The notes under the pieces: generated by a model
The model's database searches: none
What the model was told of the DNA's origin: nothing
What the model saw: only the letters and a program-made list of their open reading frames with translations
DNA from: an uncultured Azospirillum sp.
GTDB lineage: Bacteria > Pseudomonadota > Alphaproteobacteria > RF32 > CAG-239
Direction of reading: 5' to 3'
Length of the DNA: 64,000 nucleotides
Assembly (NCBI GenBank): GCA_900538765.1
Contig: UQAB01000007.1
Location: 939 to 64,938 of the forward strand
Position numbers and translations under genes: made by a program
Part shown: piece after piece, positions 11,728 to 13,203 of the stretch
Layout: every line of letters starts with the position of its first letter
Position numbering within the stretch: position 1 is the stretch's first letter

Positions 11728-13203
11728 TTATTCGCACCCCTCATAGTCTCCGTTATTTATATGATTTATAACAGCCTGTTTCAGTAGACTGTCACATTCC
11801 GGGGAATAACACATTTTTCCGCCGTTATTTACACCTGTTACATATCCGTGAACACCGCCTCCTGTGCGAGAAGAACCATCACTGCAAGTTGTTGTGCTGG
11901 AACACCAGGCCATATGCTGGGTCTGGTTTGTATTGACTTTCTGCGATGTATAGCGGCAACTGTGCCAACATGTTCGACACGTCGGTCTGGGAGGTGCTGA
12001 TTTACAGCAGGTTCTGGTTCCGCCGCAGCCATCGGAACAGGACTGTTCCCCGTAAGTACAGTTTCTCTCACTGCTTAACGGTGTGCAGCATTTAATTTCT
12101 TTTCTGCATACTGTTCCAAAATCAGTGTTAGCTGTGTCATAACATTTGCCTGAACTGGCAGAAATTTTAGAATATCCGTTAGGGCAGACGTCGCTGAAAC
12201 TTTTGAAACAAGGTTTTTGGCAGTTAGTGTAAGCCACGATTTTGTTTTTCTGATTTTCATTTTCTTCTGGGGCCTCCAAAGAACCGCTGGAACAGATATT
12301 AGAGATAATCTTGTAGCATGGTGTGCCGCATTCCGTTTTGTAGGAAGATGCTTCGTTGCAAATGCCTCTGTCCAAAGAATATCCGTTAGGGCAGATATCT
12401 TCGCATACAGTGCATTTGTAACATTTTTGACAGTTAGGTGTAGTCTCTCCGGTTTGTATCATGCCGGAACCGCAAGGCTGTTTTTGATAATTTTGCGGAC
12501 AATCTTCAGAACAAATGCATTCTTTGACTTTGGATTTGTCAAACGGGCAAAAACCGGCAGGGGAAAATCCCGTTCCGCATTTATCCGCATCTTTTTTGTA
12601 ACCTAGTTCTTCACATTTGACAATCGGGTCGATTGGCGGGATATCTGGATTGTCAGGTCCCGGAGGTGTCGGATTGTCAGGATTCTCCCAACCTCTTCCG
12701 TCGCACCGTCCGGCATCGGTAATAAAACAGACTGAGGCTGTTTTAAAAACATTCAGCTTATTATCCTCCCCTTGAGTAGGGGGAGCAAGAACTCCCCGGA
12801 CTTTGTCCGGTTGGAGTTCTCGAGGGGGTATGAGTCCCGTAAGGGACAATAAGGATGAATTTTTTAATTCATACCCTCCCCATCCAATTCCGACTATATC
12901 CTTTTGTTCGGTTCGTTTCTCTCCCTCCCAAAGGAAAGTCTCATTGCTTGGCTCGCCAAAACAATTCACCGGATTGTTTTGGCTTCGCAGCCCGGTACTC
13001 AGGGAGGGAGCTGTATTGTGCCGATTACCAAATTGAGCAGACGACAAGTGTGGATAGCCAGAGGTAAGGTGTGGTTGTGTTGTGTAGATATGTATTCCTG
13101 ACCTGGGCACGGTATCGGAAATAAAAGAAGCATAAACATCGCCGGCTTCGTTACAAATTATGCACGAAGTAGACAGTAACAGTATCTTGCTGATATTCTT
13201 CAT
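11728..13203 (-). CDS. Secreted cysteine-rich protein (~40 Cys) with Pro-rich linker; unknown function
   Basis: ORF track starts at 13227. ATG 13203 is preferred because GGAGGG lies 4 nt upstream and the product opens MKNISKILLLSTS (signal peptide). The C-terminal ~300 aa is dense in Cys, with repeated CPNGYS units and a VKCEELGYKKDADKC..FCPFDKSKVKEC module shared with 17079 and 54272. Confidence 0.7.
   Translation of the reverse strand: MKNISKILLLSTSCIICNEAGDVYASFISDTVPRSGIHIYTTQPHLTSGYPHLSSAQFGNRHNTAPSLSTGLRSQNNPVNCFGEPSNETFLWEGEKRTEQKDIVGIGWGGYELKNSSLLSLTGLIPPRELQPDKVRGVLAPPTQGEDNKLNVFKTASVCFITDAGRCDGRGWENPDNPTPPGPDNPDIPPIDPIVKCEELGYKKDADKCGTGFSPAGFCPFDKSKVKECICSEDCPQNYQKQPCGSGMIQTGETTPNCQKCYKCTVCEDICPNGYSLDRGICNEASSYKTECGTPCYKIISNICSSGSLEAPEENENQKNKIVAYTNCQKPCFKSFSDVCPNGYSKISASSGKCYDTANTDFGTVCRKEIKCCTPLSSERNCTYGEQSCSDGCGGTRTCCKSAPPRPTCRTCWHSCRYTSQKVNTNQTQHMAWCSSTTTCSDGSSRTGGGVHGYVTGVNNGGKMCYSPECDSLLKQAVINHINNGDYEGCE

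Follow-up and report, generated by a model that had tools for sequence, protein, structure and literature searches.

A cysteine-rich stalk protein and an expanded family of lectin heads with an undescribed 35-residue module in uncultured gut bacteria

Introduction

Category 'd' of the variable proteins of diversity-generating retroelements (DGRs) comprises DUF1566 / DUF823 / Fib_succ_major proteins with CLec2 variable regions, such as LdtA of Legionella pneumophila (PMC5758913). The exported proteins described here as heads resemble this category in the lectin-type fold with a WSSSE...VRPV scaffold at their C-terminus, in the adenine-only pairing with a template found in at least two head genes, and in the accompanying Avd-TR-RT cassette. 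They differ from it in several respects: LdtA is a lipoprotein, whereas the heads have no lipobox and begin with an undescribed 5-cysteine module; of the 53 head copies in the genome, the majority are not current DGR targets; and many heads are paired with a gene for a cysteine-rich stalk. A 491-aa stalk protein, the main subject of this analysis, has itself neither a lectin domain nor a variable region.

Two further lectin-tipped proteins are comparable in structure. The Legionella adhesin Lcl (PF07603 Lcl_C; 8q4e) shares the fold of the head domain (Foldseek E 3.8e-5) and presents a head on a repetitive stalk, but the head sequences score 16-20 bits, below the Pfam cut-off of 34.9, and the stalk is here a separate cysteine-rich polypeptide (or a fusion) where that of Lcl is a collagen repeat. 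Over 259 aligned columns, the head model is best matched in structure by the 'fimbrial protein' BACOVA_04982 of Bacteroides ovatus (4eps; E 2.6e-6), likewise a protein of a surface appendage with a lectin-type tip; however, identity is 14%, the front half is different and the cysteine module is absent. The variant-specific surface proteins of Giardia, a gut organism, are also mosaic and cysteine-dense, exported and encoded in many copies, whereas the proteins studied here are bacterial, have no C-terminal membrane anchor or conserved tail, are not dominated by CXXC, and showed no homology to them. Although lectins diversified by DGRs are known, we know of no account of how Gram-negative bacteria hold and display such proteins when a lipid anchor is missing.

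The window (the whole 64,000-nt stretch of DNA analysed) holds three genes that the original prediction had joined into one family of secreted, EGF-like, cysteine-rich proteins. That interpretation was upheld in part: these are exported cysteine-rich proteins with an undescribed module, while the EGF-like label and the single family were not sustained. The lectin-fold domain, the DGR, the expansion of the head family and the pairing of stalk with head genes had not been part of it.

Results

An expanded family of exported heads

Two of the three proteins belong to family 1, whose members consist of a signal peptide, a 35-aa module and an Lcl_C/C-type-lectin-fold domain. The modules first quoted at 17079 and 54272 were both recovered, and the gene at 17079 was frameshifted, its other-frame continuation containing CACASGYDWKDGAC.

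17079..18070, plus strand: frameshifted head paralogue; first ORF 17079-17321, A module 17145-17246, the rest in another frame and ending VRPVFAF
54272..55081, plus strand: intact head, 269 aa, with predicted signal peptide, A module and Lcl_C/C-type-lectin-fold domain
54341..54436, plus strand: A module of the intact head, residues 24-55, QCAVTDCQQLGYTSLQKCDNGLKCPFGEYWAC (HMM E about 1e-19)
54944..55079, plus strand: DGR variable region of the intact head gene, 136 nt, compared with template repeat C26:16722-16857

An HMM of the head module detected 53 ORFs in the 1.87-Mb genome (E 1e-21 to 1e-10) and 8 more of a second subtype, so that recurrence goes beyond chance and the module family is far larger than the three proteins initially listed. 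The head family is expanded roughly 60-fold in this genome, and its congeners carry 12-97 copies of the module. Among 1.84 billion proteins the module occurred in 403 clusters, all within a single family of uncultured gut bacteria, and was almost always located at about residues 21-61, directly behind the signal peptide; homologues of the intact head made up 1167 clusters. Few parts of the head protein are as conserved as the module, in which ten residues are invariant across 48 homologues (Q24, C25, C30, G34, Y35, K46, C47, P48, G50 and C55).

The AF2 model of the intact head reached pLDDT >93 for residues 60-269 and 47-70 for the module, and its matches by Foldseek were 4eps (E 2.6e-6) and the Lcl C-terminal domain, 8q4e (E 3.8e-5). 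At the sequence level, Lcl_C (PF07603) scored 19.7 and 16.2 bits, under the Pfam gathering threshold of 34.9, the frameshifted paralogue giving a weak Pfam match to it; it is only in the predicted fold that the heads appear related to Lcl_C. PHROGs contributed a single unnamed family, matched on the lectin domain alone. No lipobox was present in the heads, the first cysteine being preceded by Q, E or D in all of them, and lipoprotein anchoring was therefore rejected.

All ten differences between the variable region of the intact head gene and its template fall at template adenines, as do 13 of 13 in a head gene on contig C26. Judged by this pairing, the intact head gene is a current DGR target, and at least two head genes are targets, one of them on a different contig from the RT. 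The RT gene (C26:18586-19920; PF00078, 63.6 bits) is separated from an Avd-like 123-aa ORF, assigned by sequence reading (C26:16249-16620), by an array of at least six template repeats. No clean template-repeat match was obtained for the 17079 paralogue.

The 491-aa protein is an orphan stalk

The third protein belongs to a different family (family 2), laid out as a signal peptide, a variable spacer, an invariant ASVCFITD motif, a proline linker and a chain of cysteine mini-modules. Its ORF was found with the strand, position and length originally given, as an open frame.

11728..13203, minus strand: 491-aa ORF, ATG at 13203, stop at 11728-11730; orphan member of stalk family 2
13234..13262, minus strand: putative promoter-like site, TTGAAC-17-TATAGT with TG extension (consensus scan only)
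13208..13213, minus strand: GGAGGG ribosome-binding site, 4 nt upstream of the ATG at 13203, read directly from the sequence
13129..13203, minus strand: predicted signal peptide, residues 1-25, MKNISKILLLSTSCIICNEAGDVYA; N-terminus read by eye, position conserved across homologues
12739..13128, minus strand: variable spacer, predicted to be disordered, with in-frame repeat-element insertions, residues 26-155 (pLDDT <50; dN/dS 0.5-0.8)
12697..12738, minus strand: ASVCFITD..C.G motif, the family 2 signature, residues 156-169 (V158, C159, F160, I161, D163, C167 and G169 invariant in 59 homologues)
12625..12687, minus strand: proline-rich linker, residues 173-193
12508..12624, minus strand: M' module, C-x2-LGY-x7-C-x9-CPFD-x6-C-x-C, residues 194-232 (C197, G201, C209, C219, C229 and C231 invariant)
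12004..12507, minus strand: cysteine-rich hairpin stack with CP.GY units, residues 233-400, conserved with P0006-P0014
11731..12003, minus strand: C-terminal domain, residues 401-491, specific to the orthologue group and found only in P0002-P0005 (dN/dS 0.04)

The quoted module VKCEELGYKKDADKCGTGFSPAGFCPFDKSKVKEC spans residues 195-229 of this protein and the quoted linker PDNPTPPGPDNPDIPPIDP begins at residue 175; the repeated CPNGYS units amount to two copies, plus one CPQNYQ. The predicted 'about 36 further Cys' has to be corrected to 32 after residue 229, the figure of 36 being reached by counting from the first module cysteine onward, out of 41 in total. The early cysteines fall within the hydrophobic core of the signal peptide.

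Within the genus, 12 of 15 genomes contained family 2, which was absent from everything else sampled, and M' was carried by 12-14 proteins of the same genome, often twice each; homologues of the 491-aa protein formed about 70 clusters. Stalks also show His-rich stretches after the signal peptide, and many have a head-type module at their extreme C-terminus. The 491-aa protein has the signal peptide, the ASVCFITD..C.G motif and at least one M' module, and shares the DNA upstream of its gene with family 2 paralogues, but it has no C-terminal head-type module and no head gene directly downstream. Because it ends in a domain of its own and is flanked by anmK and ileS, we regard it as an orphan stalk. 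P0002 and P0003, from human-gut metagenomes, are syntenic orthologues that also lie between ileS and anmK.

In the predicted model, M' (pLDDT 84-88) forms a helix at 193-199 followed by hairpins, residues 300-400 of the hairpin stack reach pLDDT 77-91, and the C-terminal domain consists of long hairpins and a helix with no fold match by Foldseek. The first 187 residues of the model used for the fold search were of low confidence; its best PDB match had E 0.06 and was confined to ~60 residues of the C-terminal domain, and against BFVD no credible match was found (TM <= 0.12). Neither the head-domain HMM nor the fold search revealed a lectin domain. We infer that the conserved C-terminal domain stands in place of the lectin head. 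The gene had no match among the DGR template repeats, and for that reason it was dropped as a candidate DGR target.

The 491-aa ORF is under purifying selection

Compared with P0005, the cysteine-rich core of the gene had dN/dS 0.16 (dS 0.70) and the C-terminus 0.04 (dS 0.26). By this pattern of substitution the ORF is a genuine protein-coding gene, and since it is under purifying selection, the suggestion that it might be untranslated, which would have undone the original prediction, does not hold. That it is a decaying or untranslated remnant is extremely improbable: its first third is disordered, ridden with repeats and evolving at dN/dS 0.5-0.8, and the neighbouring head gene at 17079 is frameshifted, but these points stand against low dN/dS at substantial dS in the cysteine-rich part, a strong ribosome-binding site, preservation of the frame by all repeat insertions, and an intact gene in every orthologue retrieved. 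The spacer varies even between strains whose core dS is 0.007-0.03 (spacer dS 0.27-0.47); its repeats match other places in the genome, and orthologues differ by the presence or absence of segments of 105 nt and about 135 nt. Rfam gave no match in this repeat-rich 5' third.

M' is a divergent relative of the head module

The first cysteine of the head-type module is missing from M', which closes with C-x-C. The head-module HMM did not match the 491-aa protein at E <= 10, and iterated HMM searches from M' never recruited head modules, as would be expected if the likeness were convergent or a compositional accident and the 491-aa protein unrelated to the other two. We consider this very improbable, given that an unguided profile-profile comparison of the head module with the whole 491-family profile landed on the module (best local match at residues 197-226, P = 5.6e-5), and that direct alignment of M' with the head module by hhalign gave a probability of 95-96% with a score of 34.6, which none of 200 column shuffles reached (mean 9.3, sd 2.7, max 20.6). 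In addition, a genuine head-type module stands at the C-terminus of close relatives of the 491-aa protein (P0032, P0042-45, P0051, P0062, P0011), and other homologues carry the head lectin domain. On the basis of the profile-profile comparison and these intermediates, M' is a divergent relative of the 35-residue head module. The three proteins thus do share a module, in divergent form in the 491-aa protein, while belonging to two different families and not to one.

The module could not be assigned to a described family, in agreement with the original prediction. Pfam and NCBIfam searches with whole proteins and isolated modules returned no family, apart from the sub-threshold Lcl_C match and a chance hit to TIGR04117 (E 0.015); PDB sequence profiles and Foldseek gave no assignment for the module; and in the literature we found no description of it or of a cysteine-rich DGR partner. 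The EGF-like pattern is C-x-C-x2-[GP]-[FYW]-x4-8-C, and an EGF-like domain is a six-cysteine fold with 1-3, 2-4 and 5-6 disulfides. An insert unit of heads and stalks, C.C.SGYEWK.GKC, fits the short pattern, and each insert has six cysteines, but the cysteine spacing ahead of the pattern differs, no EGF-family Pfam model matched any module or insert at E <= 10, and no EGF or knottin fold was matched. The EGF-like label therefore extends to the short pattern only.

Paired, solitary and fused heads

Stalk genes that end in a module lie directly upstream of head genes that begin with one. Of the 23 C-terminal module copies in congener G011, at least 19 are followed on the same strand by a head module at a distance of 87-89 nt, and 7 of 8 similarly precede a head module in the genome under study. 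Some 40 head genes, the two in the window among them, stand alone, and heads thus far outnumber stalks. In some strains stalk and head form a single chain: four proteins (P0054, P0055, P0021 and P0007) are stalk-head fusions, combining the front of a stalk with the head lectin domain (E 1e-25 to 1e-66), and none has a module at the junction, both copies being absent. P0021 and P0055 were each checked and each found on two contigs, those of P0055 coming from different samples.

The best explanation, to which we assign a probability of roughly one half, is an exported modular stalk family in which M' is related to the head module and the terminal modules would serve as docking units. The terminal modules would hold a separately exported head on its stalk, their docking replacing the peptide bond of the fused form, and internal copies, M' of the 491-aa protein included, would serve as structural building blocks of the rod. 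Several observations weigh against docking: the 491-aa protein has only an internal, divergent form of the module, the AF2 confidence for the module in the monomer model of the head is low (pLDDT 47-70), solitary heads are numerous, and the cysteine counts do not support a covalent link.

Alternatively, the module could be only a small disulfide-stabilised unit, a spacer or protease-resistant cap, with stalk and head neighbours being co-expressed and their modules not binding each other. This would agree with the occurrence of M' once or twice inside stalks, as an ordinary repeat unit, with the composition of the proteins as mosaics of several cysteine mini-modules, and with cysteine parity, which gives no support to a stalk-head disulfide. 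We nevertheless think it unlikely, if still worth weighing, since at least 19 of 23 cassettes place the two copies exactly at the facing termini of adjacent genes, a constant distance apart, and since the head module is so highly conserved (10 invariant residues in 48 homologues). Moreover, the fusions fold without either terminal copy, so the lectin domain does not depend on the module as a cap.

The strictly terminal position of the module, at the mature N-terminus of heads and the extreme C-terminus of stalks, could also be that of a signal for sorting or export, one that is recognised once Sec transport is complete and that directs both proteins across or onto the outer membrane. Its restriction to one bacterial family is as expected of lineage-specific machinery, and the missing lipobox calls for another route of surface anchoring. 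Such a signal is improbable, however, as the fusions and the 491-aa protein do without a terminal copy and yet are conserved and keep a signal peptide, and no dedicated transporter gene was present beside the cassettes inspected.

Cysteine chemistry

Counted outside the variable region, 31 of 37 heads have an odd number of cysteines, and module-terminated stalks always have an even number, 32 or 38. On these counts an intermolecular stalk-head disulfide is not supported, and a covalent link was not retained. The check for Dsb genes that had been proposed was answered in part: the genome encodes two DsbA-like proteins that are anchored in the membrane and carry CGYC and CFHC sites, while neither DsbB nor VKOR was found, although the genome is scored 100% complete. 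Because of that absence, disulfide formation is assumed here.

The absence of DsbB and VKOR, the His-rich stretches behind the signal peptide of the stalks and the odd counts in heads would suit cysteines that bind a metal, for example zinc, and form no disulfides, in metal-stabilised or metal-sequestering proteins. The two DsbA-like proteins speak against this, as do the invariably even cysteine numbers of stalks and fusions, inserts that add six cysteines at a time, and predicted hairpin stacks of the kind typical of disulfide-rich extracellular repeats; we judge metal binding to be decidedly improbable.

Discussion

The original prediction derived a host- or surface-interaction function from a disulfide-dense, EGF-like character. 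A surface or ligand-binding role of the module carriers is plausible, because most of them end in a lectin-fold domain and some are diversified by a DGR. For the 491-aa protein itself, the most likely role is in binding or scaffolding within the gut, at the cell envelope or outside the cell.

More tentatively, and with more doubt than belief, the locus may be part of a plug-in adhesin system, in which a few cysteine-rich stalks would accept any one of dozens of lectin heads, encoded separately, through homologous terminal docking modules, some heads being rewritten by the DGR from a library of template repeats and solitary heads being swapped in and out, while module-free stalks such as the 491-aa protein would bear fixed heads. 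If true, this would amount to combinatorial surface variation by a mechanism not described in bacteria.

What is new here is the undescribed 35-residue module together with its partner stalk family, and the natural occurrence of fused and split stalk-head forms points to a docking mechanism that can be tested. More than 60 cysteine-dense exported proteins in a genome in which DsbB and VKOR are absent also raise the question of the oxidation route. With 53 genes of about 0.9 kb each, heads account for ~3% of the DNA of this 1.87-Mb genome, a share that is larger still in congeners with as many as 97 module copies; the head family thus probably plays a central part in the way these common uncultured gut bacteria encounter their environment.

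Two families share the cysteine module

The original prediction placed three cysteine-rich proteins of the window in one secreted family. This was not borne out: they fall into two families, heads (family 1) and stalks (family 2), with the 491-aa protein belonging to the latter. In the 17079 and 54272 proteins, both heads, the predicted modules were found directly after signal-peptide-like N-termini; the 17079 gene is indeed frameshifted, and its continuation in the other frame contains CACASGYDWKDGAC and terminates in VRPVFAF. The 491-aa ORF lies where predicted, on the minus strand between an ATG at 13203 and a stop codon at 11728-11730; its module (residues 195-229), proline linker and CP.GY units were all recovered. 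The window features are:

11728-13203, minus strand: 491-aa stalk-family gene
12739-13128, minus strand: disordered spacer with in-frame repeat-element insertions (residues 26-155 of the 491-aa gene)
17079-18070: frameshifted head gene
54272-55081: intact head gene

A regular expression followed by a module HMM detected 53 module ORFs, and 8 of a second subtype, in the genome that contains the window (G000; 1.87 Mb, 51 contigs). Heads are typically 260-370 aa long and consist of a signal peptide, a mature N-terminus of the form [QED]-C-x4-5-C-x2-LGY-...-C-...-KCPFG-x3-C, 0-2 six-cysteine inserts (Y.YTC..., CG.KY.SC.C.SGYEWK.GKC) and a domain with terminal WSSSE...VRPV[IL].F. This last domain was modeled by AF2 with pLDDT >93 and its Foldseek matches were 4eps (E 2.6e-6) and 8q4e, the C-terminal domain of Lcl (E 3.8e-5), the Pfam Lcl_C match being below threshold only; pLDDT for the head's module was just 47-70. 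One head (441-aa ORF, approximately C2:84300-85640, minus strand) has a 170-residue cysteine-rich tail beyond the usual VRPVIEF end. Units of the form C.YG....GCGGTR..C are common to this tail, residues 382-400 of the 491-aa protein and fused stalks, and mini-modules have therefore been shuffled between heads and stalks in both directions.

Some heads are targets of a retroelement

G000 encodes two reverse transcriptases (RTs), and the heads are proteins of a diversity-generating retroelement (DGR), falling in DGR category 'd' (PMC5758913). Contig C26 carries, in this order, a stalk gene, a head gene, a GIY-YIG-like gene, a toxin-antitoxin-like pair, an Avd-like gene, the template-repeat array and an RT (444 aa). 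The repeat at C26:16722-16857 and window positions 54944-55079 align over 136 nt, and each of the 10 differences between them falls at a template adenine; in a second template/variable pair 13/13 differences are at adenines. Other heads match template repeats with mixed substitutions only and hence are not current targets. The 491-aa gene was ruled out as a target, having no template-repeat match. The array itself (C26:16600-18520, with the Avd-like gene on one side and the RT on the other) holds at least six different tandem repeats with a period of ~270 nt, and different repeats match different head genes. A pair of 110-nt repeats (C2:35663-37469) brackets the smaller RT (344 aa, C2:36079-37113, minus strand); of the 12 differences between its copies, 11 fall at adenines of the upstream one (37360-37469), and this is therefore a second DGR.

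The 491-aa gene is an orphan stalk

Family-2 proteins comprise a signal peptide, a variable spacer, an invariant ASVCFITD..C.G, a linker, an internal divergent module (M'; C-x2-[LA]GY...C...CP.D...C.C) and additional cysteine units; from one homologue to another, the C-terminal part differs wholesale. M' is carried by 12-14 G000 proteins, often in two copies each. The 491-aa protein, an orphan member of the family, contains 41 cysteines, of which 32 follow residue 229, and has ~70 homologue clusters, none named. Another stalk gene (C7:65367-66804) lies just past the right end of the window on the same contig, its 479-aa frame open to the contig end.

The 491-aa ORF is a real gene. A GGAGGG box is located 4 nt ahead of its ATG, with a promoter-like TTGAAC-17-TATAGT ~30 nt beyond the box. 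Its homologues P0002 and P0003 (86% and 83% identity) are encoded at the same site, the ileS-anmK interval, on human-gut metagenome contigs. The gene for P0005 (71% identity) instead follows secDF and precedes an ABC-F gene, so the gene has changed its housekeeping neighbourhood among related species. Compared with P0005, the cysteine-rich core shows dS 0.70 and dN 0.11 (ratio 0.16), and the C-terminal 90 residues a dN/dS of 0.04.

Within the spacer, dN/dS is 0.5-0.8, dS reaches 0.27-0.47 even where the strains' cores are nearly identical, and AF2 pLDDT is <50. Orthologues differ in whether they contain in-frame blocks of 105 nt and ~135 nt, and spacer segments recur in G000, some in paralogues' N-termini and some in intergenic DNA. 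Among the orthologues compared, the 105-nt block occurs only in this strain; the ~135-nt block, which has hairpin potential, is also present in P0002, and P0003 and P0005 have other sequence in its place. Window positions 12860-13007 match intergenic copies at C9:36396-36545 and C3:110527-110665, and no Rfam match was found for the spacer repeat elements. Paralogues on contigs C19, C5, C11, C2, C6 and C45 have in common the signal peptide and the DNA just 5' of the start codon (window 13204-13262), and the in-frame translation ...CYSILVMTSVEDTMKNIS appears repeatedly among them. This suggests that they share one promoter and leader cassette.

Terminal modules mark the junction of stalk and head

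A plain HMM search does not link M' of the 491-aa protein to the head module, and M' lacks the first cysteine of that module and differs in its tail. However, when the head-module profile was aligned unguided to the whole family-2 profile, the best local match fell at residues 197-226 (P = 5.6e-5). Using hhalign, M' matched the head module with 95-96% probability and the stalk-terminal subtype with 94.6%, as compared with 97.6% between the two terminal subtypes; 200 column shuffles of M' scored 9.3 ± 2.7 (maximum 20.6), against an observed 34.6. Because of these matches, and because a bona fide module of the terminal type is found at the C-terminus of several 491-aa protein homologues, we accept M' as a divergent relative of the head module.

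Stalk-terminal modules read …C-x5-C-x2-LGY-x4-C-x5-KCPF[DN]..YV.C, followed by the stop. In G000, a module-terminated stalk gene lies directly 5' of a head gene in 7/8 cases. In the better assembled congener genome G011, at least 19 of the 23 full-length terminal copies have a head module 87-89 nt downstream of them, in the same orientation; six loci examined there contain seven stalk-head pairs (two of them tandem in one locus), with gaps of ~10-15 nt or overlapping genes. Four homologues of the 491-aa protein (P0054, P0055, P0021 and P0007) end in the head lectin domain itself (E 1e-25 to 1e-66). The contig look-up covered P0021 and P0055, each found on two contigs, those of P0055 from different samples. 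Stalk and head are therefore two parts of one functional unit. In all four, the terminal-type module is absent from the junction, the last six-cysteine insert leading straight into the lectin domain, whereas in separate proteins the two copies of the module coincide exactly with the point of the split. The module is an undescribed mini-domain, and its terminal copies probably serve to dock lectin heads onto stalks. Some 40 heads, however, have no stalk gene beside them.

A disulfide between stalk and head is not supported, since 31/37 heads of G000 have an odd cysteine count outside the variable region, and terminal-module stalks and fusions have even counts. Of the nine cysteines in the conserved head scaffold, five belong to the module and four lie where the lectin domain begins; the third module cysteine changes position between subtypes. 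Together with the odd counts, these features point to a cysteine that either stays a free thiol or forms a disulfide with another partner. Of the Dsb genes, two membrane-anchored DsbA-like proteins are present (CGYC, C24:12987-13397; CFHC, C4:95507-95842), but neither DsbB (PF02600) nor VKOR (PF07884) was found in G000, a genome scored 100% complete. It nevertheless encodes >60 exported proteins with 9-56 cysteines.

The module is confined to one bacterial family

As had been proposed, the module lies outside known families: Pfam, NCBIfam, PDB sequence and Foldseek gave no assignment for it, nor for M' and the inserts. The predicted EGF-likeness holds for the short pattern, with no family or fold assignment beyond it.

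Occurrence of the head module and of the stalk core
Head module, genomes of the genus: 15/15, 12-97 copies each
Head module, other genera of the same family: 8/10, 1-15 copies each
Head module, genomes outside that family: 0/16
Head module, 1.84 billion representative proteins: 403 clusters (E <= 0.001), almost always at residues ~21-61
Stalk core of the 491-aa protein: 12/15 genomes of the genus only

Named records read 'MAG: Pseudomonadota bacterium' or 'uncultured proteobacterium', with samples from human gut, and a GapR gene on a related contig fits the alphaproteobacterial class. The original finding is real, and it forms the edge of a large system that has not been published.
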